Positions 74 to 39,910 of a stretch of DNA of 64,000 bases are shown here, in pieces. The DNA is taken from NCBI RefSeq assembly GCF_046105845.1, contig NZ_CP151004.1, one strand, 5' to 3'. Position 1 is the first letter of the stretch, and each line of letters opens with the position of its first letter. The DNA is from Escherichia coli (GTDB lineage: Bacteria; Pseudomonadota; Gammaproteobacteria; Enterobacterales; Enterobacteriaceae). The notes under the pieces are model-generated. The model ran no database searches. It worked only from the letters and a program-made list of their open reading frames with translations, and had not been told where the DNA came from. The position numbers and the translations under genes were made by a program.

Positions 74-1369
<1,296 letters not shown>

Positions 1370-1469
1370 CTACATTTGCCAACTGTATGCTACGCCTGTG
1401 TTGCCGCTTCTCTGGCCCACGGTTCGCTGTCGTTGTAGGCCCGGTAGCATGTGTACCGGGCCAGGGTTG

Positions 1470-3404
1470 TTAAGACGATTTACGTACGCGCAAATACCAT
1501 TCGCACAGTAAACGCACCTGTTTACGGGTGTAGCCTTTTTCCATCATACGGTCGACAAAATCGTCGTGTTTCTTTTGCTCGTCGGTTGACGTTTTGGCGT
1601 TAAACGAAATAACCGGCAACAGCTCCTCGGTATTGGAGAACATTTTCTTCTCGATAACCGTGCGCAGTTTTTCATAGCTGGTCCAGTTCGGATTGCGTCC
1701 GCTGTTATTCGCTCTGGCGCGCAGTACGAAGTTAACAATCTCGTTGCGGAAATCTTTTGGATTACTGATCCCCGCCGGTTTCTCGATTTTCTCCAGCTCG
1801 GCGTTAAGAGACTCGCGGTCAAACAACTGCCCGGTATCCGGATCGCGATACTCCTGATCCTGAATCCAGAAATCCGCGTAGGTAACATAACGGTCGAAAA
1901 TGTTTTGCCCATATTCGGAATAGGATTCAAGGTAGGCCGTCTGGATCTCTTTGCCAATAAACTCGGCATATTTCGGGATCAGATAACCTTTCAGGAACTC
2001 CAGATAGCGTTCTGCCTGCTCTTGTGGGAACTGCTCGCGCTCGATCTGCTGTTCCAGGACGTAGAACAGATGGACCGGGTTTGCCGCCACTTCTACATGA
2101 TCGAAGTTGAACACGCGGGAGAGGATCTTAAACGCAAAACGCGTCGACAGACCGTTCATCCCTTCATCGACACCGGCGTAGTCACGATATTCCTGATACG
2201 ACTTGGCTTTGGGATCGGTGTCTTTCAGACTTTCGCCATCATAAACCCGCATCTTTGAATAAATGCTGGAGTTTTCTGGCTCTTTAAGGCGCGAAAGAAT
2301 GGAAAAACGTGACAGCGTTTCCAGCGTGCCAGGGGCGCAGGGGGCGTGAGTCAATTCACTGTGATTAAGCAATTTCTCGTAGATTTTGATCTCTTCGGAA
2401 ATGCGCAAGCAATACGGCACCTTCACGATGTAAACACGATCGAGGAAGGCTTCGTTGTTTTTGTTATTACGGAAAGTGACCCATTCGGATTCGTTCGAGT
2501 GGGCGAGAATAATCCCGTTGAACGGCAGGGCGGAGATACCTTCCGTCCCGTTGTAGTTACCTTCCTGAGTGGCGGTTAGCAAGGGATGCAGCACTTTAAT
2601 CGGTGCTTTAAACATCTCAACGAATTCCATGATCCCCTGGTTGGCGCGGCACAGTGCACCGGAATAGCCGTAGGCGTCCGGGTCATTCTGCGCGTAGTGT
2701 TCGAGTTTACGAATATCGACTTTCCCAACCAGCGCGGAGATGTCCTGGTTGTTCTCATCACCGGGTTCCGTTTTGGCGATAGCAATTTGTTGCAGAATTG
2801 ACGGCCAGACCTTCACTACCCGGAACTTAGTGATATCGCCACCAAATTCATGCAGGCGTTTTGCCGCCCACGGCGACATGATGGTGCCGAGATAACGGCG
2901 AGGAATGCCATACTCTTTTTCCAGAATCTGCGCATCTTCCTGCGGATTGAAAAGACAGAACGGATGATCGTTGACCGGGCTACGCTCACCGTTGGCGCTC
3001 AATACATAAATCGGTACGAGCTGCATTAATGATTTCAGTCGCTCAGCAAGCGATGATTTACCCCCACCCACAGGCCCCAGCAGATACAGGATTTGTTTCT
3101 TCTCTTCCAGCCCCTGAGCCGCGTGTTTCAGATAAGAGACAATCTGTTCAATCGCGTCTTCCATGCCGTAAAACTCTTCAAATGCCGGATAACGTGCTAT
3201 GACCCGGTTAGAAAAGAGTCGAGAAAGTCTGGGTTCCTGGGCTGTATCGACCATGACAGGCTCACCGATAGCCATCAATAGCCGCTCAGCCGCGTTGGCA
3301 TAAGCACTGCGATCTTGCCGACAAGTGGTAAGAAACTCCTGCAGTGTGAACTCTTCGTCCTTGGCAGCTTCATATCGCTGGCGATAGTGATCGAATATAT
3401 TCAT
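1470..3404 (-). CDS. yeaG: YeaG, PrkA-family serine protein kinase
   Basis: 644 aa ORF with P-loop (LLGPVGGGKSS); matches remembered YeaG; synteny. Confidence 0.9.
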   Translation of the reverse strand: MNIFDHYRQRYEAAKDEEFTLQEFLTTCRQDRSAYANAAERLLMAIGEPVMVDTAQEPRLSRLFSNRVIARYPAFEEFYGMEDAIEQIVSYLKHAAQGLEEKKQILYLLGPVGGGKSSLAERLKSLMQLVPIYVLSANGERSPVNDHPFCLFNPQEDAQILEKEYGIPRRYLGTIMSPWAAKRLHEFGGDITKFRVVKVWPSILQQIAIAKTEPGDENNQDISALVGKVDIRKLEHYAQNDPDAYGYSGALCRANQGIMEFVEMFKAPIKVLHPLLTATQEGNYNGTEGISALPFNGIILAHSNESEWVTFRNNKNNEAFLDRVYIVKVPYCLRISEEIKIYEKLLNHSELTHAPCAPGTLETLSRFSILSRLKEPENSSIYSKMRVYDGESLKDTDPKAKSYQEYRDYAGVDEGMNGLSTRFAFKILSRVFNFDHVEVAANPVHLFYVLEQQIEREQFPQEQAERYLEFLKGYLIPKYAEFIGKEIQTAYLESYSEYGQNIFDRYVTYADFWIQDQEYRDPDTGQLFDRESLNAELEKIEKPAGISNPKDFRNEIVNFVLRARANNSGRNPNWTSYEKLRTVIEKKMFSNTEELLPVISFNAKTSTDEQKKHDDFVDRMMEKGYTRKQVRLLCEWYLRVRKSS

Positions 3405-3507
3405 GGTATGCCGTCCTTTCGTTTTTTAGCACAGGTTAAGAGCCGTTCATATGAATAGTAGAGGCTCCCGGAAGAGGTAAACTGAACGACGTCTCTTGCT
3501 AAAACAC

Positions 3508-10085: not shown

Positions 10086-11465
10086 ATGGAACAGATAACA
10101 AAACCGCATTGTGGTGCACGGCTGGATCGCTTACCGGATTGCCGCTGGCATTCGTCAATGTTTGCTATCGTCGCGTTTGGCTTGCTTGTCTGCTGGAGTA
10201 ATGCCGTTGGTGGCTTGATCCTCGCGCAGCTGAAAGAGTTGGGCTGGACAGATAATTCCACCACTGCCACATTCTCAGCAATCACGACCGCCGGAATGTT
10301 TCTCGGTGCGCTGGTTGGCGGCATCATCGGTGACAAAACCGGTCGCAGAAATGCGTTCATCCTCTATGAGGCCATTCATATTGCCTCGATGATGGTCGGT
10401 GCTTTTTCACCGAATATGGATTTCCTTATTGCCTGCCGTTTTGTGATGGGCGTTGGGCTGGGAGCTTTACTGGTGACGCTGTTTGCTGGGTTCACCGAAT
10501 ATATGCCCGGTAGAAATCGCGGAACGTGGTCCAGTCGGGTTTCCTTTATTGGCAACTGGTCATATCCGCTCTGTTCATTGATTGCGATGGGACTCACGCC
10601 GCTGATTAGTGCTGAGTGGAACTGGCGGGTACAACTGCTTATCCCTGCAATATTGTCGCTTATCGCTACGGCGCTGGCCTGGCGCTACTTTCCTGAATCC
10701 CCGCGCTGGCTGGAATCGCGCGGACGGTATCAGGAAGCCGAGAAAGTCATGCGGAGTATAGAAGAAGGCGTCATACGCCAGACGGGTAAACCTTTGCCGC
10801 CCGTGGTTATTGCTGATGACGGTAAAGCGCCACAAGCGGTGCCGTATTCAGCCTTACTGACAGGAGTATTACTGAAACGCGTGATATTAGGTTCTTGTGT
10901 GCTGATTGCCATGAACGTTGTGCAGTACACACTAATTAACTGGTTGCCAACGATATTCATGACCCAGGGGATTAATTTAAAAGACTCGATTGTTTTAAAT
11001 ACCATGAGTATGTTTGGTGCGCCATTTGGTATTTTTATTGCCATGCTGGTGATGGATAAAATTCCGCGTAAAACAATGGGTGTGGGGCTATTAATCCTGA
11101 TTGCGGTGCTCGGATATATCTATTCACTGCAAACCAGTATGTTGCTCATAACGCTGATTGGTTTCTTCCTGATTACTTTCGTCTATATGTACGTTTGCTA
11201 TGCCTCGGCAGTGTATGTCCCTGAGATCTGGCCGACAGAGGCCAAATTACGTGGCTCCGGTCTGGCGAATGCAGTAGGGCGAATCAGTGGTATTGCCGCA
11301 CCTTATGCCGTTGCAGTGCTGCTCAGTAGTTATGGCGTAACGGGAGTCTTTATTCTTCTGGGGGCGGTTTCAATTATTGTCGCAATTGCTATCGCCACCA
11401 TTGGAATTGAAACCAAAGGTGTCTCCGTTGAAAGTTTAAGTATTGATGCAGTAGTCAATAAATAA
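10086..11465 (+). CDS. ydjK: YdjK, MFS transporter
   Basis: 459 aa multi-TM protein; MFS motifs; synteny. Confidence 0.88.
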   Translation: MEQITKPHCGARLDRLPDCRWHSSMFAIVAFGLLVCWSNAVGGLILAQLKELGWTDNSTTATFSAITTAGMFLGALVGGIIGDKTGRRNAFILYEAIHIASMMVGAFSPNMDFLIACRFVMGVGLGALLVTLFAGFTEYMPGRNRGTWSSRVSFIGNWSYPLCSLIAMGLTPLISAEWNWRVQLLIPAILSLIATALAWRYFPESPRWLESRGRYQEAEKVMRSIEEGVIRQTGKPLPPVVIADDGKAPQAVPYSALLTGVLLKRVILGSCVLIAMNVVQYTLINWLPTIFMTQGINLKDSIVLNTMSMFGAPFGIFIAMLVMDKIPRKTMGVGLLILIAVLGYIYSLQTSMLLITLIGFFLITFVYMYVCYASAVYVPEIWPTEAKLRGSGLANAVGRISGIAAPYAVAVLLSSYGVTGVFILLGAVSIIVAIAIATIGIETKGVSVESLSIDAVVNK

Positions 11466-22188: not shown

Positions 22189-22304
22189 TAATTGTCGCGA
22201 AACTGTCTGGATTGTGAGCAAAGGCGCAGGAATTCAGACACTCTCACTTATCACTTCACGGAATGAGGGTTACCATACCCGGATTGCATTGACAGGAGAT
22301 GTCC

Positions 22305-23348
22305 ATGAGCGAGAACTCGATTCGTTTGACCCAATACAGCCACGGAGCTGGTTGCGGCTGTAAAATTTCCCCAAAAGTGTTGGAAACCATCCTGCACAGT
22401 GAGCAGGCGAAGTTTGTTGATCCGAATTTGCTTGTGGGTAATGAAACCCGCGACGATGCGGCGGTGTACGATCTGGGCAATGGCACCAGCGTTATCAGTA
22501 CCACCGACTTCTTTATGCCGATCGTTGATAATCCTTTCGATTTTGGCCGCATTGCGGCGACTAACGCCATCAGCGATATCTTCGCGATGGGGGGCAAACC
22601 GATTATGGCGATTGCGATCCTCGGCTGGCCTATTAACAAACTTTCCCCTGAAATTGCCCGCGAAGTAACCGAAGGTGGACGCTATGCATGCCGTCAGGCG
22701 GGTATTGCGCTGGCTGGCGGTCACTCCATCGATGCGCCGGAGCCGATTTTTGGTCTGGCGGTAACGGGGATCGTACCGACCGAGCGAGTGAAGAAAAACA
22801 GTACCGCACAAGCCGGATGTAAACTGTTCCTGACGAAACCGCTGGGGATCGGCGTTCTTACCACGGCTGAGAAAAAATCACTGCTGAAACCAGAACATCA
22901 GGGACTGGCGACGGAAGTGATGTGCCGGATGAACATCGCAGGCGCGTCCTTTGCCAACATCGAAGGCGTAAAAGCGATGACCGACGTTACGGGCTTTGGT
23001 CTGCTGGGGCATTTAAGCGAAATGTGTCAGGGGGCTGGTGTGCAGGCGCGCGTCGACTATGAAGCGATCCCGAAACTGCCGGGGGTTGAAGAGTACATTA
23101 AGTTGGGCGCAGTGCCTGGCGGCACCGAACGTAACTTTGCCAGCTACGGTCATCTGATGGGTGAAATGCCGCGTGAAGTGCGCGATCTGCTGTGCGATCC
23201 GCAAACTTCTGGCGGTCTGCTGCTGGCGGTCATGCCGGAAGCAGAAAATGAGGTCAAAGCTACAGCCGCCGAGTTTGGCATTGAACTGACGGCGATTGGC
23301 GAACTGGTGCCAGCGCGCGGCGGTCGTGCCATGGTTGAGATCCGTTAA
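22305..23348 (+). CDS. selD: Selenide, water dikinase (selenophosphate synthetase)
   Basis: 347 aa from [23 protein letters not shown]. Confidence 0.95.
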
Positions 23349-32370: not shown

Positions 32371-33678
32371 TTATTTGCTGCTGTCCGGGCCGCGTTCACC
32401 CGTTGCTACCGGATTTTTTGGATTGCTGCTCCATTCGTACCAGCCGCCGTCGTAAACGGAGACGTTATTCCAGCCCATTGCTCGTGCGTACATAAAGGTT
32501 TCGGACGCGCGCCAGCCGGTGCCGCAGTAGAATGAAACTTGCTGATCTGGTCTGATATTCCATGCTTTCCACATAGCCGTAATATCATCGGCGCTGCGCA
32601 TGGTGCCATCCGGGTTATGAAAATCTTCCATATGCGTCGAGTCGCTACCAGCGTGTCCCCAACGTGCTCCGGCTATTTCACCTTTTGGTTTAATATAGCT
32701 GTAACCGCTGGTCGTACCGATAAATTCTGGCCACGAACGAATGCTCACCAGCGATGCATCCTGGCGATGCAGCAGTCCACGGGCCTGTTCCATATCGAGC
32801 ATCAACTGCGGTTGTGCCGGGATCTTCACGCCGAAATCCGGTTCCGCTTTCACTTTCGGTGGCGTTCCGCGCTCAACGGGCAGTCCCGCGTCGGACCAGG
32901 TTTGCCAGCCGCCGTCCAGCAGGCGCACATCTTTCACGCCAGCGTAGAGCATAATTTGCGCCACACGCGCTGCAGCGTATACGTCACGCCCGTACAGAAT
33001 GACCGTGGTGTCATGGCGAATGCCGTGTTTTGCCAGCATCGCTTTCAGTTGTTCATCAGAAACTTTGTTCCACAGCGGTTCGCTTTCCACTTCGTTGGTG
33101 TCGATGTAGTCAGCGCCGGGAATATGGCTGATAAGGTAAAATTTTGGAGCGCCCCAGGCCGCTTCAATGACTTTCCAGTCACCGGCAGGTTTCGCCGTAA
33201 CCTCTTTACCTTGTTGCAGGTCATGCAGCCACTGCGGATATACCAGCTGTTCAAAGTGCGGCAGTTTTTGCAGACGGGAAGGTTCGCTTAGCGCGTCACT
33301 CAGGATGGAGATATGCGTAAAACCTGCTTTTTGCAGTCGCGTTTTGACGGCGTCGACATCTTTGTCATTACCGTACAGTGCCACCGGGGCATCGGCTTTC
33401 AGGTTATGTTGCTTGATCCACTCGTTGAGCTGTTCGGTGCTCATTTTGTCGAGCCAGCTAGCAGAGAGGTTTAAGGCGGCAGGTTCATGACCGGAAGGGC
33501 CATTTAAGGTTTGTGGCCAGCCGTTATAAAACGCGCTGGGGCGAGTATCTATCGCTTTGCCATTTTGTTGTTGAAGCTGGTCAAGTGTAAGAGGCTTCGC
33601 CAGTTCAGCGGCCCACGAAGAAGCGCAAGCCAGCCCTAAAGCCATTGCCAGCGCGGTCATTTGAGAAACACGTTTCAT
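32371..33678 (-). CDS. ynjE: YnjE, periplasmic thiosulfate sulfurtransferase (rhodanese)
   Basis: 435 aa from MKRVSQMTALAMAL with signal peptide; tandem rhodanese domains. Confidence 0.88.
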   Translation of the reverse strand: MKRVSQMTALAMALGLACASSWAAELAKPLTLDQLQQQNGKAIDTRPSAFYNGWPQTLNGPSGHEPAALNLSASWLDKMSTEQLNEWIKQHNLKADAPVALYGNDKDVDAVKTRLQKAGFTHISILSDALSEPSRLQKLPHFEQLVYPQWLHDLQQGKEVTAKPAGDWKVIEAAWGAPKFYLISHIPGADYIDTNEVESEPLWNKVSDEQLKAMLAKHGIRHDTTVILYGRDVYAAARVAQIMLYAGVKDVRLLDGGWQTWSDAGLPVERGTPPKVKAEPDFGVKIPAQPQLMLDMEQARGLLHRQDASLVSIRSWPEFIGTTSGYSYIKPKGEIAGARWGHAGSDSTHMEDFHNPDGTMRSADDITAMWKAWNIRPDQQVSFYCGTGWRASETFMYARAMGWNNVSVYDGGWYEWSSNPKNPVATGERGPDSSK

Positions 33679-33744
33679 CGAAAATCCCGACATTGTAGTT
33701 TTGAGAGCGCCATTCTGAACTGACGCATCGGGAAAAACTTTGCG

Positions 33745-34398
33745 TTATCGCAGTTTGTTGTAATTTTCTGACCACTGCGCCATATCCAGAACGGGGCTAT
33801 CAGGAGGAACATCCTGAAGATCGTGCGTCACCTGCACAACAGGGATCGCCATGGCGCGAATTTCGCTGAACACCCAATGGCGAAAATTATCGCGCAGGGC
33901 CACATCAAGACGGCTGAATGGCTCATCCAGTAGCAACGCTTTTGGCTGAGCGAGAAGGGCGCGAAGCAGAGCAACGCGCGCTCGCTGACCGCCAGACAAA
34001 GTGGCAGGATCCTGATGGAACGCTCCGTCAAGGCCTGAACGCTCAAGTGCATCATTCACGGCATTACGTCGGGCATTCCCCTTAAGTGTCGCCGGTAGCG
34101 CCAGCAGTAAATTTTGCCCGACGCTGAACTGGTCAAATAACAGTGCATCCTGGAAAAGAATGCCAATCTGACGCTGTGCGGTGGGTAGCATGTCAATCCG
34201 TTGCTCATTAAGCCATAGCTCCCCTGTACAAGAAAACTGTCCGGCCAGCGCACCAATCATCCACGAAAACAGAGTGGATTTCCCGCAGCCGGATGGTCCC
34301 ATTAACGTGACAATGTCACCTTTATCTACTGTAAAGTTAACGTTTGTCAGCAAGCGGCTTTCTGGTAAACGTAGCGAAACATTTTTCACGCAGAGCAT
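33745..34398 (-). CDS. ynjD: YnjD, ABC transporter ATP-binding protein
   Basis: 217 aa from MLCVKNVSL; Walker A GPSGCGKST, LSGGQ signature. Confidence 0.88.
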   Translation of the reverse strand: MLCVKNVSLRLPESRLLTNVNFTVDKGDIVTLMGPSGCGKSTLFSWMIGALAGQFSCTGELWLNEQRIDMLPTAQRQIGILFQDALLFDQFSVGQNLLLALPATLKGNARRNAVNDALERSGLDGAFHQDPATLSGGQRARVALLRALLAQPKALLLDEPFSRLDVALRDNFRHWVFSEIRAMAIPVVQVTHDLQDVPPDSPVLDMAQWSENYNKLR

Positions 34399-35933
34399 TA
34401 GCGGAGTCCTTGTCTGACATAACCTACCCATTTTGCGACTAACGCGGTCAGGGCAAAAATAATAAGCGGTAACAGCAGTTGCCATAAAGCCTGGGCGGCG
34501 AGAATACCGTTGCTGCCGCCGCTGCTTAATGCCACCGCTTCAGTGGTGAGCGTCGGAAAACGCCCCGCGCCCAGCCACAGCGTCGGCATATACTGCGCAA
34601 TACTGACTGAAAATCCCACCGCGAAGGCAATCAGCGCAGGGCGCAACATGAGTGGGCATTTTACGTAAAAGAAGATTTTGGCCCGCGACCAGCCCAGTGT
34701 TTGCGCAATCAAAATTAACCGTGAATCAATGCGCTGCCAGGCGGGTTGCAGGATAAACAGCATCCACGGCATTACCCACAGCAGATGCCCCCAGACCACC
34801 GCCGTCCAGCTTCCATCCAGGTTCAGCCATAGCGCCAGCGTGTACTGGCCCGCCACCAGCGGCAGAGCGGGTAATAAAATGGGCAACCATAGCCACAACT
34901 GGCGACGCTGTGGCCCCCATTCCAGCCACAGCAGTAACAGGAGCAAAGCGATGAATGCCGCCACCAGCCCCATTGTCAGGCTGTTGATGAGCGCTTCACT
35001 ATTGATCGTCGACTGATCCGCGAGGATCGCCAGCAGAACCACACACAGCACACCGGTTAAGGGTAAAAGACTCGCCAGCGTAATGCCAGGCAATAAAGGC
35101 GTGGCAGGCTTACGAACGCCATCTACGCGGGGAATAGTACGCCGCCAGCTACGCCATAGCAGATAGCCCAGCAAAACGTAGGCGGCGAGTAACAGCATCA
35201 GCAGCAGGCTGGCGAGTGCGCCTTTCGTTTGTTGATCGGCTTCGCCCTGAGTTAACCACTGCCAGCTAATTACTGCCAGCGTCGGTGGATTACCTGGCCC
35301 AAGAATAATCGCCACATCCACGACCGACAGCGACCAGGCAACAATCGCCAGCATCGCCATTGCCAGCGCAGGCGCGACGGAGGGCAACAGTAGCCAGTTC
35401 AGGCATTGCCAGCGGCTGTAGCCCAGCGAATCCAGCACAATGAGTTGCTGCAACAGCCGTTTTTCGCTCAATACTGCCGCTAAGATCCACAATAGAAATG
35501 CGCTTTCTTTCACCGCCAGCGTGAAGCCCAGCCCAATACCCAATTTGTCCATTGGCGGAGTGAAATATGGGAAATAGTCATAAAGCAGCCCTCCGTCAGC
35601 AAAGAGCAGAAGGGCGCTGGTGGCAAAAGCCACATGGGGAATGGCGAGCAGCCACGGCAGACGGGCGCACATACGCTGCCATTTCGGCCCGGGCCACAGC
35701 GCCACAATCACCAGCAGGGCAATCAACAACGCCCCGCCCGCCGCGATGGTTGTCGACACCAGCGTTGCCAGTAATGCCTGCGGTAACTGCGGGTCAGCAA
35801 ATAACGCCTGCCAGTGTGTCAACGACAAAGCAGGCGATATCAGCGTGAGAGTTGCCGGGATCAGCGGTGCATAAATCACCGCCACCATCGCCCACAGCAA
35901 AAAGATTAATGCGTACCGTAACGGTGTAGCCAT
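34398..35933 (-). CDS. ynjC: YnjC, ABC transporter permease (fused two-domain)
   Basis: 511 aa from MATPLRYALIFL; multi-TM. Confidence 0.88.
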   Translation of the reverse strand: MATPLRYALIFLLWAMVAVIYAPLIPATLTLISPALSLTHWQALFADPQLPQALLATLVSTTIAAGGALLIALLVIVALWPGPKWQRMCARLPWLLAIPHVAFATSALLLFADGGLLYDYFPYFTPPMDKLGIGLGFTLAVKESAFLLWILAAVLSEKRLLQQLIVLDSLGYSRWQCLNWLLLPSVAPALAMAMLAIVAWSLSVVDVAIILGPGNPPTLAVISWQWLTQGEADQQTKGALASLLLMLLLAAYVLLGYLLWRSWRRTIPRVDGVRKPATPLLPGITLASLLPLTGVLCVVLLAILADQSTINSEALINSLTMGLVAAFIALLLLLLWLEWGPQRRQLWLWLPILLPALPLVAGQYTLALWLNLDGSWTAVVWGHLLWVMPWMLFILQPAWQRIDSRLILIAQTLGWSRAKIFFYVKCPLMLRPALIAFAVGFSVSIAQYMPTLWLGAGRFPTLTTEAVALSSGGSNGILAAQALWQLLLPLIIFALTALVAKWVGYVRQGLR

Positions 35934-37072
35934 TCTTGTTCCAGCGCATTTACCCAACCTGCGTGCGGTTCAGCCAGTACCGGCGGCAGATCCTGCGGCA
36001 TTCTTGATTGCAATTTTTCGCGCTGCCCGTCAGGCAGTTTTTGCGGATCGAGAACCGAAGGATCGCCCCAGACAGCAGGGTCTGCTTTACGCAGTTGTGC
36101 ATCGGGTGAGAGCAGGAAATTGGCGACAACCTTCGCCGCAGCACTGGCATTCGCGTTAGCAGGAATGGTGACGAAATGCACGTTGCCAATCATTCCCTCG
36201 CTAAAGCCAAAGCTGTAACTGCTGGCGGGTAAATCGCCGCTGGCAATTTTTTGCTGCGCATGAGCGGGGTTAAAAGTGAGCGACAGGCGCAATGTGCCGG
36301 CTTTCAGCAGAGCATCCATCCGCGCGGGCGAAGGCGGAAAATCCTTTCCTTCGCGCCATAAATACGGATGCAGCGCATCAAGAAATTGCCACAAGGGCGC
36401 AGTGACACGGGCGAAAGTCGCATCGTCCGGCGCTTCTTTTAACGCGGCGGGATCTGGTGTCAGCATAATCAGCAACTGTTCAAGAAACGCCGTGCCGGTA
36501 AAGTCCGGTGGGCGCGGATAGGTAACCGTGCCGGGATTGGCTTTAGCAAACTCCAGCAACGCTTGCGGCGTTTGTGGTGGCTGTGGCGTAACATCGCGGC
36601 GGGCGATAAACGTCAGTTGTGCGCCACCCCAGGGCGATTCAGCCCCTTCTGTAGGCACTGAAAAATCTTCCCGCACCGGCAGCTGTGTGTCGACATAGCG
36701 CCAGTTGGGCAGAGTCTCCACCCAGCCCGTTTGTAATAAATTGGCCTCTTTTAAGGTGCGGAAGTTTTCGCCGTTCACCCAGAGCAGATCCACCGAACCG
36801 CCTGTTTTGCGTCCGGCAGCAGCTTCGGTCTGAATGCGCTTCACCGCGTCTGCGGCATCCGCGAGACGAACAATCTTCAGGTTTATAGCGTAATGGGTTT
36901 TCATCTCGCCGCTAACCCAGTCGAGATAGCGGTTAATTGCGGTATCGCCGCCCCAGGCGTTAAACCAGACGGTTTGCCCTTTGGCCTCATTTTTAATTTC
37001 CTGCCAGTCACTGGCATGTGTTGCCAAAGAAAACAGCGATAACAATCCCAGCAACCACCCACAATGGCGCAT
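35906..37072 (-). CDS. ynjB: YnjB, ABC transporter periplasmic binding protein
   Basis: 388 aa with signal peptide; overlaps ynjC start. Confidence 0.88.
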   Translation of the reverse strand: MRHCGWLLGLLSLFSLATHASDWQEIKNEAKGQTVWFNAWGGDTAINRYLDWVSGEMKTHYAINLKIVRLADAADAVKRIQTEAAAGRKTGGSVDLLWVNGENFRTLKEANLLQTGWVETLPNWRYVDTQLPVREDFSVPTEGAESPWGGAQLTFIARRDVTPQPPQTPQALLEFAKANPGTVTYPRPPDFTGTAFLEQLLIMLTPDPAALKEAPDDATFARVTAPLWQFLDALHPYLWREGKDFPPSPARMDALLKAGTLRLSLTFNPAHAQQKIASGDLPASSYSFGFSEGMIGNVHFVTIPANANASAAAKVVANFLLSPDAQLRKADPAVWGDPSVLDPQKLPDGQREKLQSRMPQDLPPVLAEPHAGWVNALEQEWLHRYGTH

Positions 37073-37081
37073 CTTCTCTCC

Positions 37082-37630
37082 TTAAGCACGTTTTTCCGGA
37101 ATACGGCACAGCCCCTGAGCGGGAATGTCCATGGCAGAATTAAAACGAGCCGACAGGTTTTGCAGGCCGATCAATGCCGTCAGTTCGGTGAGCGCCTGGG
37201 CGTCAAAATGCGCAGCCAGTCGGGTACGCAGGGCATCATCGACCGTTGGCGGCGTTACGCTTGCGGCTTCGGCGTACTCCAGCGCCAGCCGTTCTTCATC
37301 GCTAAAGAGCGGGCTTTGCCGCCAGTCAGCCACTGCCAGCAGTTTATCGGTGCTGCCAGTGCGCTCGGCGACTTTCATACTGGTGATATCCACGCAAAAC
37401 TCACACAGACACATTTGCGCAATGCGCGCGCTGACAAGCGATCGCACTACTGGATCCAGCGGTGAGCGTTTGCGCTCCAGCCAGCCGACAAACATCGACA
37501 CCAGATAAAAGATAAACGGGATCCGCCCCCACCAGCGAATCGGGCTTAGCACCTCGCCGTAATGGCGACGATGCAGCCACGCCTGCGGACGTAAAATGAA
37601 AGGAATTTTGCTAAGCGGCGGTAAACCCAT
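37082..37630 (-). CDS. ynjA: YnjA, carboxymuconolactone decarboxylase (AhpD-like) family protein
   Basis: 182 aa; synteny. Confidence 0.85.
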   Translation of the reverse strand: MGLPPLSKIPFILRPQAWLHRRHYGEVLSPIRWWGRIPFIFYLVSMFVGWLERKRSPLDPVVRSLVSARIAQMCLCEFCVDITSMKVAERTGSTDKLLAVADWRQSPLFSDEERLALEYAEAASVTPPTVDDALRTRLAAHFDAQALTELTALIGLQNLSARFNSAMDIPAQGLCRIPEKRA

Positions 37631-38337
37631 CAGGCATTCCTCTTCTGGCGCTCAAGCCATATTTTCTTCGCCATAAAAATCACCACGGTCAGGGCAAACA
37701 GAATAAACAGTCCGGTGACAAACCAGAAAGTACCGCCTGTTAACATGCTGCCCGCCCAGGAATAAACAATAGTCGCTGGTAACTGACCAAGCCCGGTGGC
37801 GATAAAAAATGAGCGAAAACGGATTGAAGTCAAACCGGCAGCATAGCTGATTGGATCGAAAGGGACAAAAGGCAATAACCGACATACCAGGATGGTGTGT
37901 TTGCCGTAGCGAGTGAAAAAGCCGTCCATACTGTCAAGTACGGTTTTGCCGGTTAATTTTTCCACCACTTCGCGGCCCATCACTCTGGCGATAAAAAAGC
38001 ACAGCGCCGCGCCGGCCATCGAACTGGTCCACGACAGCAAGCCGCCCCAGAACGCGCCAAACAGCGACGCATTGGCAAAGGTGATCAAAAACGCAGGTAG
38101 CGGTGCAGCAATGGCCTGCAAAATCATCAACAAGAACGAGACAACTGCCGCCAGTGCGCCGTAAGACTGAATAAAGCGTTCTATACCCTGTTGGTCCACG
38201 GCGGCAAACGCCGCAACGCTGCGATTAATAAACTCATTGACGCCGGGAAGCAGCGCCCATGCCAGCAGCATAGCGAACAACAGGATGATGAGGGTTATAC
38301 GGTAGTACCAGATTTTTCGCGATTGCATCTTCATCAT
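37630..38337 (-). CDS. ydjZ: YdjZ, DedA/TVP38-family inner membrane protein
   Basis: 235 aa multi-TM. Confidence 0.85.
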   Translation of the reverse strand: MMKMQSRKIWYYRITLIILLFAMLLAWALLPGVNEFINRSVAAFAAVDQQGIERFIQSYGALAAVVSFLLMILQAIAAPLPAFLITFANASLFGAFWGGLLSWTSSMAGAALCFFIARVMGREVVEKLTGKTVLDSMDGFFTRYGKHTILVCRLLPFVPFDPISYAAGLTSIRFRSFFIATGLGQLPATIVYSWAGSMLTGGTFWFVTGLFILFALTVVIFMAKKIWLERQKRNA

Positions 38338-38351
38338 CCTTTATCCTGGCT

Positions 38352-39029
38352 TTATTCGGTGATTTTAAAGGTAACCGTTGCCAGCGTATTATCCGCCGGG
38401 AGAACCGAGGCATTGCCTTTGAATTTCACTTCGCCGCGTTTTTCCACCGCACCATAAGTGTATGTTGCATTGCTGACGATGCCGACCGGGCAGCTATCCA
38501 GACACACCAGGCAGCCCGTTTTCTTCTCTTCTGCTGCCGTTAAATTACCGCCAAAGCGCATGTCCAGTTTCTTGCCATTACTGTCAACAATCACTTCATC
38601 GAAGGAATACGCTTTTGCCGCCCCTTGCCAGTTGACCGAAATATCCAGTTTGCTGCCTGTGACATGAGTCGTTTCTTTATTATCCATCGTCATGTTTTCG
38701 CCCGGCGTACCACCTGCCTCTTTCAGGGCTTCATAAAATGCTTTCGGGGTCGCATAACCCATAAACAGCGATTTATGTCCGTTGGAGCCATCTTTAAACA
38801 CAATACCGTGACGAGTGTCGTCGGTGAGGAAACGACCATTAATTTGCACCAGCATGGTTACCGTATGGTTATTGGCATCGACACGCAGCGGTTGGCTGTT
38901 CGAAAGTCCGTCGTATTCCACTTTTGCAGCCGCATTCTCTTTTTGATCGCAGCCGCTAAGCCCGGCAACAGCCAGTAAGCAGAGTGCAGCCAGTCCTTTT
39001 TTCCATGACACTGAATAATGTTGCAACAT
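38352..39029 (-). CDS. ydjY: YdjY, predicted lipoprotein/exported protein
   Basis: 225 aa from MLQHYSVSWKKGLAALCLLAVAGLSGC (lipobox); track ORF is N-terminally extended. Confidence 0.8.
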   Translation of the reverse strand: MLQHYSVSWKKGLAALCLLAVAGLSGCDQKENAAAKVEYDGLSNSQPLRVDANNHTVTMLVQINGRFLTDDTRHGIVFKDGSNGHKSLFMGYATPKAFYEALKEAGGTPGENMTMDNKETTHVTGSKLDISVNWQGAAKAYSFDEVIVDSNGKKLDMRFGGNLTAAEEKKTGCLVCLDSCPVGIVSNATYTYGAVEKRGEVKFKGNASVLPADNTLATVTFKITE

Positions 39030-39033
39030 CGTT

Positions 39034-39744
39034 CTATCCTTCATTTTTTGGGTGAGAAAGTGGGCTGCGGCGAGAAGCAGACAGATCCACATGTTTGTGT
39101 CGGGCGTAGAGTTTTGCGAGCTGGACGAGAATAAACAGCGCCAGGCCCGCCAGACAGAGTTGTAAAATAAAGCGCAGCGTAATGCCTTCATTGGCGAGAT
39201 CGCTTGCCATCACGGTATAAATAACAATACCGGGTAGGGTTGTGAGTGCCGAAATAAGGGTATAAGGCCAGAAGGCGATTGTGGTTAATCCGTAAGCGTA
39301 ATTTTGAATATTGTAAGGAAACAACGGGATTAAGCGGGTCAGAATAAGAAAATCAATACCGTTACGCGCAATGCCTTTTTCAATGGCCTGGAAGGTATGG
39401 CTATGGCCAACGTATTTCAGCAGTAAATCACGTCCCAGCCAGCGCGCCAGCAGGAATGAGCACGAGGAGGCCAGCGTGGCGGCAATTAATGATAGTAGTG
39501 TCCCTAAGAGCGGGCCAAAAACTATTCCTCCAGCGATCACCAGTATGCTTCCTGGTAACAGAAAGAGGGTGGCAATGATGAATAACAGAATATAGAGGCT
39601 ATAACCGAACAATCCGCTCTGGCGAATGAGTGTCTGTAAGTGGGGTAAATCGGTGAGCAGATCGAATAAACCGAAAGCGTGGATAGCGTAAATGAGCAGC
39701 GCAAAAATAAGACAGGCAAAAAGAAATTTACGCTCAGCGTTCAT
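39034..39744 (-). CDS. ydjX: YdjX, DedA/TVP38-family inner membrane protein
   Basis: 236 aa from MNAERKFLFACLIF. Confidence 0.85.
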   Translation of the reverse strand: MNAERKFLFACLIFALLIYAIHAFGLFDLLTDLPHLQTLIRQSGLFGYSLYILLFIIATLFLLPGSILVIAGGIVFGPLLGTLLSLIAATLASSCSFLLARWLGRDLLLKYVGHSHTFQAIEKGIARNGIDFLILTRLIPLFPYNIQNYAYGLTTIAFWPYTLISALTTLPGIVIYTVMASDLANEGITLRFILQLCLAGLALFILVQLAKLYARHKHVDLSASRRSPLSHPKNEG

Positions 39745-39910
39745 TGTGGAGTTTCCTATATCAAACTTGATAATAGAGAAGTGGACAGACAACTAAAAAC
39801 GCAGTGACGGTATAACAAAGGGCGGCAGGCAACAAATCATTACTGACAGTTTGTTGATTTTTCTCAAGGTTAATTCTCCTGACCCAGTTTGAGCCAGGAG
39901 AACAGCTAAA

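Follow-up and report, generated by a model that had tools for sequence, protein, structure and literature searches.

The 64-kb stretch of Escherichia coli DNA analysed here (the window) carries on its minus strand, at positions 32371–39744, eight intact genes, ydjX-ydjY-ydjZ-ynjA-ynjB-ynjC-ynjD-ynjE, as established from the open reading frame (ORF) listing and by megablast against E. coli genomes. We propose that this cluster is the enterobacterial ‘salvage’ form of a rare envelope module that occurs mainly in anaerobes and host-associated bacteria, an explanation which is derived from protein families and gene neighbourhoods and to which we assign a probability of about 0.35. That the eight genes, ynjE included, form one functional system together with the neighbouring ynjF is quite likely. 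The core of the module is proposed to consist of YdjY, a lipoprotein with a triad of cysteines, and a DedA protein of the YdjZ type (COG0398). In other bacteria, this core, a rhodanese of the YnjE type and a cytoplasmic partner for thiol/disulfide redox reactions are encoded inside ArsS-type operons, with the radical-SAM protein ArsS (TIGR04167) and the ‘arsenosugar’ enzymes TIGR04282 and TIGR04283. The clusters of E. coli and some Firmicutes lack these biosynthetic genes, and the YnjBCD importer and YnjF would stand in their place. The locus and its regulation are already known and annotated; its function is not.

YdjY (38352–39029, minus strand like all eight genes) has 225 residues, a lipobox LSGC (Cys27) and the cysteine triad C173-x2-C176-x-D-S-C180-P, and it matches solely the NCBIfam ‘YdjY domain’. 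A sequence search of PDB gave no significant match to YdjY, with ferredoxin chains appearing at E ≥ 0.3. Homologues from Escherichia, Firmicutes, Desulfobacterota and Campylobacterota are 50–60% identical and share three invariant cysteines; the family alignment has 35 invariant positions, including C173, C176, D178, S179, C180, R73 and H74. The family is rare, with 93 confirmed stretches across 100,044 species (one genome per species) and 396 representatives among 1.84 billion clusters. The export signals of YdjY and YnjB and the motifs of YnjA and YnjF given below were read directly from the sequence. Since the signal of YdjY is of the lipoprotein type and lacks a twin-arginine motif, the protein is expected to be exported as an unfolded chain. 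The K-12 name of YdjY denotes a 4Fe-4S ferredoxin-type protein. We rejected this assignment, because the three conserved cysteines form CxxCxxxCP instead of the required CxxCxxCxxxCP, and YdjY matches no Fer4 family at E ≤ 0.01.

Fusion proteins provide evidence for the partners of YdjY that is independent of gene neighbourhood. Four representatives (P0271, P0277, P0269 and P0349), all with export signals, join YdjY to a rhodanese, one (P0311) joins it to a VTT domain and one to a fatty-acid hydroxylase. A further VTT–YdjY candidate of 451 residues (P0242) was discarded as a frameshift or assembly artefact of E. coli ydjX-ydjY; such a read-through arises because only 4 nt separate these two genes.

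The two genes that bracket ydjY, ydjX (39034–39744) and ydjZ (37630–38337), encode inner-membrane DedA/VTT proteins of the COG0398 type, 236 and 235 residues long. Both score well above the Pfam cut-off of 33.9 bits for VTT_dom (PF09335), YdjX with 93 and YdjZ with 87 bits. YdjZ is the conserved partner of YdjY. Of 79 loci with YdjY, 70 encode a VTT protein no more than 6 kb away, mostly one of the YdjZ type located directly downstream (typically E 1e-60 to 1e-84). In Desulfarculus, Syntrophus and related deltaproteobacterial loci, the VTT domain is fused to Fe-S/CCG disulfide-reductase-like domains, and COG0398 DedA proteins have been described as frequently fused to disulfide oxidoreductases (bioRxiv 10.1101/2023.01.04.522824). 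According to the same study, these proteins lack the residues for flipping or binding undecaprenyl phosphate and resemble eukaryotic phospholipid scramblases. Assignment of YdjX and YdjZ as undecaprenyl-phosphate flippases of the UptA type was likewise rejected, as they reach only 27.5 and 36.4 bits against an NCBIfam cut-off of 250. Another DedA protein, PetA, is reported (PMC10193950) to distribute phosphatidylethanolamine across membrane leaflets.

The neighbours of YdjY were counted within 10 kb in 73 non-enterobacterial loci carrying 38 taxon labels, the locus counts being inflated by related genera. The most frequent is a membrane protein of about 130 residues (30 loci). An Fe-S/CCG disulfide-reductase-like protein, sometimes fused to VTT, is present in 20 loci (13 taxon labels), TIGR04283 in 16 (nine labels), TIGR04282 in 13 (nine labels) and a YnjB-like binding protein with permeases in 10 (seven labels). 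ArsS is found in eight loci, each with a different label, a rhodanese in seven (four labels), SelD in seven (five labels) and a YnjF-like transferase in five (five labels). MprF-type flippase-like genes occur in five YdjY loci, several contain a nucleoside hydrolase and a kinase, and the redox partners include CCG, AhpD-like, C-GCAxxG-C-C and CcdA/ResA proteins. A CMD protein encoded beside ArsS in one locus (L022) was not equated with YnjA, as the likeness is confined to the surroundings of the CxxC motif.

Several of these loci are close counterparts of the E. coli cluster or link it to ArsS. In two Firmicute metagenome-assembled genomes (L050 and L056), a single operon encodes YdjY, the small membrane protein, YdjX, YdjZ, CCG, a YnjF-like protein, YnjB, two YnjC-like permeases and YnjD, which by its families is essentially the E. 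coli gene set. The operon of a Campylobacter metagenome-assembled genome (L068) comprises YdjY, the small membrane protein, TIGR04282/kinase, YdjZ, YdjX, a TIGR04283-like protein, CCG, ArsS, a 180-residue protein and a three-domain rhodanese with the active-site loop of YnjE, to which it is 38% identical over 405 residues. Campylobacter corcagiensis (L091) has a similar YdjY/VTT/TIGR04282/kinase/CCG/ArsS operon, in which the glycosyltransferase belongs to Pfam Glycos_transf_2 and the rhodanese is a single domain of 129 residues. In Facklamia (L078), TIGR04282/kinase, TIGR04283 and ArsS, all above NCBIfam cut-offs, are encoded with CcdA-like and ResA-like proteins, YdjZ, YdjX and a nucleoside hydrolase, and the same island holds the small membrane protein, YdjY, a rhodanese, tRNA-Sec, ArsM, SelD, YedF, SelB and SelA. 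Homologues of YdjY, DedA proteins and rhodaneses thus share operons with ArsS-type genes in Campylobacter, Facklamia, Syntrophus, Thermincola and others. ArsS is reported to append a 5'-deoxyadenosyl group to an organo-arsenical, after which adenine is removed and the ribose derivatised (bioRxiv 10.64898/2026.04.29.721666). The hydrolase, kinase, nucleotidyltransferase-like and glycosyltransferase genes, judged by their families, fit a route of the ArsS type. A limited literature search found no paper linking YdjY or COG0398 DedA proteins to rhodanese fusions, YnjF or ArsS-type operons.

Four forms of the locus can be distinguished: a biosynthetic form, with ArsS and TIGR04282/TIGR04283; a form combining import with TIGR04282/TIGR04283, in Catonella and Bacillus benzoevorans; a form combining import with YnjF, in E. 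coli and some Firmicutes; and a minimal form with YdjY and YdjZ only, in Gemella and Finegoldia. Rfam scans of 15 YdjY loci revealed no riboswitch that would name a ligand. In Catonella morbi (L035), a Clostridiales-1 RNA (RF01699; 49.5 bits against a gathering threshold of 48) lies at 10571–10678, between YdjY and the downstream VTT gene. Proteins of 466 and 275 residues in the 1265–3489 region of the C. corcagiensis locus and the 180-residue protein of the Campylobacter operon (9480–10022 of L068) match no Pfam or NCBIfam family and may be further components of these YdjY–ArsS operons. In the island of Facklamia lactis (1487–18235 of L078; Lactobacillales), a PrdB-like ORF ends early, possibly at a selenocysteine codon, and the selenocysteine trait of this species seems to travel with the island.

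The system probably extends beyond 32371–39744 to ynjF (31742–32362, plus strand), which is convergent with ynjE and encodes a membrane protein of the CDP-alcohol phosphatidyltransferase family. YnjF scores 43.8 bits with PF01066 (cut-off 22) and displays DGALAR-RRGLTDA-G-GFL-D-ISL-D, the family motif used being DG-x2-AR-x7/8-G-x3-D-x3-D; its nearest NCBIfam models, archaetidylinositol- and phosphatidylinositol-phosphate synthases, are below cut-off. In three Firmicute operons (L050, L056 and L064), ydjZ and ynjB have a YnjF-like gene between them, and in a further locus (L038) such a gene adjoins ydjY. In Citrobacter freundii (L089) and Kluyvera ascorbata (L090), the same chromosomal site is occupied by xthA-ydjX-ydjZ-ynjB-ynjC-ynjD-ynjE, without ydjY, and a 57%-identical ynjA orthologue immediately precedes ynjF on the opposite strand, as a two-gene ynjA-ynjF operon. 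The CMD gene thus belongs to one transcription unit or the other depending on the genus, and this links ynjF to the cluster. In Kluyvera, ynjE and ynjF are separated by about 2.5 kb of additional genes.

YnjE (32371–33678; 435 residues) is a periplasmic rhodanese with a signal peptide. It matches PDB entries 3IPO/2WLR at E 1e-285 and contains three Pfam rhodanese stretches, with the catalytic loop C385-GTGWR. The first-pass annotation had described a tandem rhodanese; the protein has three domains and not two, in agreement with the title of the crystal-structure paper as cited in PMC10215317. In that study, YnjE is described as periplasmic, the purified protein had no apparent thiosulfate:glutathione activity and used thiosulfate or 3-mercaptopyruvate poorly, thiosulfate-derived sulfane sulfur was accounted for by PspE, and the physiological substrate of YnjE was called unclear. 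YnjE also has weak, below-cut-off matches to the NCBIfam (seleno)rhodanese and ExtH models. The next-best solved relative is the sulfurtransferase 6KTV/6H98 (E 1e-88 over residues 33–427). The PDB table names it only ‘Sulfurtransferase’; we take it to be EanB, the anaerobic ergothioneine synthase, an enzyme that transfers sulfur straight to a small molecule.

YnjB (35906–37072; 388 residues), YnjC (34398–35933; 511 residues, its start overlapping ynjB by 28 nt) and YnjD (33745–34398; 217 residues) qualify as a binding-protein-dependent ATP-binding cassette (ABC) importer, as an exported binding protein, a fused two-domain permease and an ATPase are encoded together. Their Pfam matches are SBP_bac_8 for YnjB, BPD_transp_1 for residues 346–502 of YnjC and ABC_tran (PF00005, 103 bits) for YnjD. 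YnjB, a periplasmic substrate-binding protein with a signal peptide, belongs to NCBIfam subfamily PRK11622 (560 bits) and has no significant match in a sequence search of PDB. A Foldseek search with its AlphaFold2 model (predicted local distance difference test score 88.6) retrieved cluster-D binding proteins (STM0429, PotD, FbpA, TbpA and AfuA) at 13–17% identity. In Firmicutes, two separate permease genes align with residues 181–238 and 355–501 of YnjC. The NCBIfam models nearest to YnjD are all below cut-off (PhnT2, 144 against 458; ThiQ, 131 against 245; sulfate ATPase). Assignments of YnjBCD as a thiamine, 2-aminoethylphosphonate, sulfate or polyamine transporter were therefore rejected, as no subunit reaches an equivalog-level match, and the earlier statement that the ABC substrate is unassigned holds. 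Family searches likewise upheld the other gene identities proposed in the first-pass annotation, namely, VTT/DedA proteins for YdjX and YdjZ, a lipoprotein for YdjY and a CMD/AhpD-like protein for YnjA.

YnjA (37082–37630; 182 residues) has a CMD domain (PF02627, 36.4 bits against a cut-off of 23) with the motif C74-x-C76-x2-C79, in which C76-E-F-C79 forms the CxxC. AhpD proper has the catalytic motif CxxCxxxH. YnjA has Thr (E. coli) or Asn (Citrobacter) four residues past the second Cys instead of His, and was thus rejected as an AhpD alkylhydroperoxidase proper. It scores only 22.7 with the peroxidase-related model TIGR01926 (cut-off 81.8), and its best NCBIfam match, also below cut-off, is a YciW-related (seleno)protein.

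Each step of the mechanism that we envisage is less certain than the overall explanation and is drawn from families and gene neighbourhoods. YnjB would bind a small polar precursor in the periplasm for import by YnjCD, whereupon YnjF could attach the precursor or a derivative to a phospholipid at the cytoplasmic face of the membrane. The DedA pair, YdjX and YdjZ, would then move the lipid-linked compound to the outer leaflet. At the periplasmic face, YdjY, together with YnjE via a persulfide on Cys385, may carry out thiol or sulfur-transfer reactions on the compound, and YnjA, through its CxCxxC, might serve as the redox partner. A role for lipids is proposed because of the DedA literature, the MprF-type genes in five loci and the transferase families; thiol chemistry is proposed because of the YdjY triad, the YdjY–rhodanese fusions and the CCG, AhpD-like, C-GCAxxG-C-C, CcdA and ResA partners. 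The substrate may be an organo-arsenic, selenium or sulfur compound. In a more specific version, which we consider distinctly improbable, E. coli and scattered anaerobes of gut and sediment would have an envelope pathway dedicated to the salvage or synthesis of organo-arsenical sugars or lipids, or of a selenium analogue. The compound, whether imported or made in the cell, would be coupled to a lipid, flipped by the COG0398 DedA proteins and thiolated on the outer side by the YnjE-type rhodanese and YdjY. Conversion of arsenosugars from the oxo to the thio form by enteric bacteria has been reported (PMC6656958).

A number of observations weigh against the salvage-module explanation. Homologues of ArsS, ArsM, TIGR04282, TIGR04283, CCG and the small membrane protein are absent from the 64-kb window at E ≤ 1e-3, so that accessory genes common to both are all that connects E. 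coli with the ArsS pathway. In size, the ArsS family greatly exceeds that of YdjY, and ArsS frequently occurs without YdjY or VTT neighbours. ArsM was found in one locus only, that of Facklamia, and arsenic is therefore not claimed as the substrate. ArsS never occurs with YnjB, nor YnjF with TIGR04283, but, as only about one joint locus would be expected, the pattern lacks statistical significance; mutual exclusion was too weakly powered and was dropped as evidence for a choice between making and importing the compound. The many loci with YdjY and YdjZ only, as in Gemella and Finegoldia, imply that the core may have a simpler, self-sufficient role. Moreover, YdjY is not essential to the enterobacterial system, since Citrobacter and Kluyvera lack it, and YnjF of E. 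coli is only 25% identical to the Firmicute YnjF-like protein. Finally, the modelled fold of YnjB allows no inference at the level of the ligand.

Some of the same evidence could be accommodated by periplasmic sulfur scavenging, in which YnjE would, under anoxia, draw sulfane sulfur from thiosulfate or polysulfide to hand it to YdjY, and YnjBCD would import a sulfur compound that is reduced by YnjA and assimilated, with the DedA proteins and YnjF as neighbours that have no part in the process. The presence of a rhodanese and its fusions to YdjY, activation of both transcription units by FNR (PMC3688515), the below-cut-off similarity of the ATPase and permease to subunits of sulfate and molybdate transporters, and the sulfur-metabolising anaerobes among the YdjY hosts (Sulfurospirillum, Desulfobacterota) are all consistent with it. 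However, the poor activity of purified YnjE and the role of PspE (PMC10215317) argue otherwise, and scavenging leaves unexplained the near-obligate pairing of YdjY with a DedA protein, the conserved YnjF-like gene and the placement in operons with ArsS, TIGR04282 and TIGR04283. We regard this explanation as unlikely. The link to sulfur trafficking raised in the first-pass annotation is thus supported by the fusions but not by the reported activity of YnjE with thiosulfate and 3-mercaptopyruvate. The K-12 annotation name casts YnjE as a molybdopterin synthase sulfurtransferase, a role also cited in PMC3688515, which would make it a helper of a cytoplasmic pathway merely adjacent to an unrelated transporter and membrane-protein operon. 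This is very unlikely, since YnjE has a signal peptide, is described as periplasmic (PMC10215317) and is represented in PDB by constructs starting at residue 20–23, and YnjE-type rhodaneses recur with YdjY and VTT proteins in distant phyla. Molybdopterin synthesis itself is cytoplasmic. Thiosulfate sulfurtransferase is a further functional name given to YnjE, with which its reported poor use of thiosulfate (PMC10215317) is at odds.

Alternatively, the cluster might acquire selenium for anaerobic selenoproteins such as formate dehydrogenases or for selenouridine, with a DedA protein moving selenium across the membrane and the rhodanese and the cysteines of YdjY carrying it. A DedA protein of Cupriavidus has reportedly been linked to selenite uptake, and control by FNR coincides with anaerobic selenoprotein use. 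The presence of SelD in seven of the 73 YdjY loci, of YedF in nine and of SclA-like desulfurases in a few (Desulfobacterota and Facklamia) points in the same direction, as do the matches of YnjA and YnjE to (seleno)protein, (seleno)rhodanese and ExtH models. Nevertheless, none of the NCBIfam (seleno)protein matches comes near its cut-off, selenium genes are missing from the surroundings of most YdjY loci, and in Facklamia the selenocysteine machinery adjoins families with selenoprotein forms (ArsS and a PrdB-like fragment), which is a sufficient explanation for its presence. In the window, selD (22299–23348, plus strand) lies about 9 kb from ynjE, but topB, gdhA, ynjH and nudG separate it from the cluster, and because these intervening genes are unrelated the proximity is probably coincidental. 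Overall, selenium acquisition appears rather improbable.

Published chromatin immunoprecipitation and RNA sequencing data (Myers et al. 2013; PMC3688515) define two directly FNR-activated anaerobic units, ydjXYZ-ynjABCD and ynjE, with FNR positions at −60.5 and −41.5, respectively. The single operon suggested in the first-pass annotation is thus replaced by a unit of seven genes and a separate ynjE, although anaerobic control by FNR is shared; its refuting observation, independent units with unrelated regulation, is seen only in the separateness of the units and not in their regulator. Upstream of ydjX, an FNR-like box, TTGAGAAAAATCAA (39854–39867, minus strand), has one mismatch to TTGAT-N4-ATCAA and lies 116 nt upstream of the ydjX ATG. 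The box is kept in K-12, Citrobacter and Kluyvera, and its position agrees with the reported FNR site at −60.5. A plausible −10 element lies about 58 nt downstream of the box centre, and a candidate −10, TTATAC, is found at 39810–39815, between the box and ydjX. In the region upstream of ynjE, a consensus search found no FNR site at ≤2 mismatches; FNR control of this promoter is therefore taken from the published immunoprecipitation data. A palindrome, CTGCGATAACGCAA (33740–33753, minus strand), extends across the stop codon of ynjD and may be a regulatory site for the ynjE promoter. Its core, TGCG(A/T)TAACGCA, occupies the same place in E. coli, Citrobacter freundii and Kluyvera, the surrounding sequence having diverged. 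The −10 element CAGAAT (33712–33717) implies a start site from which the centre of the palindrome would lie 41.5 nt upstream, and the palindrome may correspond to the weak FNR site reported at −41.5 or to the site of another regulator. Consensus scans identified promoter-like hexamers, TTCAGA-16-TACAAT, in the 66-nt gap between ynjD and ynjE and no minus-strand terminator between these genes, so that read-through from ynjD into ynjE is possible.

Other data sets also touch on the expression of these genes. Overproduction of BaeR led to mild induction of ynjABCD (PMC2731931), and in a ygfI-mutant data set ynjE and ydjY decreased together (−5.3 and −5.2 fold), alongside hyc, frdA and dcuC (PMC9068703). 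The stop codons of the convergent ynjE and ynjF are 8 nt apart (32362–32371), with no terminator-like hairpin between them, and the pair is listed among ‘excludon’ candidates with overlapping transcripts (PMC12288877).

The cluster is closely delimited and well conserved within the species. The ydjX start codon begins at 39744 and the ynjE stop codon ends at 32371; from ydjX to ynjE, in gene order, the gaps are 4, 14, −1, 9, −28, −1 and 66 nt, which confirms the earlier description of eight co-directional, closely spaced or overlapping genes. The window is E. coli proper, with 98.0% identity to E. coli strain A21 and 96.3% to K-12, and the 8-kb cluster region is matched by megablast in 5424 of 5426 complete E. 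coli genomes. All eight genes are colinear with K-12, equal in length to their K-12 counterparts and free of internal stops, and they are 94–98% identical at the nucleotide level. About 236 nucleotide differences from K-12 give just 53 amino-acid changes, which argues for purifying selection on the cluster. Identity to K-12 is uneven, at 98.2–98.5% in ydjX-ydjZ (37630–39744) and 94.3–96.2% in ynjB-ynjD (33745–37072), and suggests a recombination mosaic. The cluster is flanked as in K-12, by xthA and astC at one end and by ynjF, nudG, ynjH and gdhA at the opposite end.

With ynjF, the locus comprises nine of the ‘y-genes’ that are still uncharacterised in the best-studied bacterium; two encode members of the DedA subfamily closest to the human TMEM41B/VMP1 scramblases. 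Should the arsenical pathway be real, the oxo-to-thio conversion of arsenosugars by enteric bacteria would gain a genetic explanation, and bacterial COG0398 DedA proteins would have their first physiological substrate. A link to arsenicals or selenium would bear on the transformation of dietary arsenic species by gut bacteria; if no such link holds, the cluster would still be a clean entry point to the substrate of a DedA protein.

The proposed system can be compared with several known ones. Among the DedA lipid transporters UptA, PetA and TMEM41B/VMP1, with which YdjX and YdjZ share the VTT/DedA domain, the eukaryotic scramblases are nearest to the COG0398 subfamily; YdjX and YdjZ differ from all of these in coming as a pair that bracket a dedicated lipoprotein, and their scores are far under the UptA cut-off. 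YnjBCD resembles the cluster-D importers for thiamine (ThiBPQ), 2-aminoethylphosphonate (PhnSTUV), ferric iron (FbpABC) and polyamines (PotABCD) in the fold of YnjB, in the two-domain fusion of the YnjC permease and in the nearest models of YnjC and YnjD (PhnU2/PhnT2, ThiQ and PotA), but YnjB, at 13–17% identity to solved binding proteins, stands in a subfamily of its own, PRK11622. Unlike the sulfurtransferase 6KTV/6H98, YnjE is exported to the periplasm and has no hercynine-forming methyltransferase encoded nearby. The arsenosugar genes ArsS/ArsM share operons with homologues of YdjY, YdjX/YdjZ and rhodaneses in other bacteria, including a three-domain rhodanese of the YnjE type in Campylobacter, whereas the E. 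coli window has the importer and YnjF instead of ArsS, ArsM, TIGR04282 and TIGR04283. Finally, the Arn pathway (ArnC, ArnE/F and ArnT) offers an analogy, and an analogy only, for the order of events, namely, loading of a lipid in the cytoplasm, transfer by a small membrane flippase and use in the periplasm. TIGR04283 weakly matches ArnC-type transferases, but YdjY and ArnT are not homologous.

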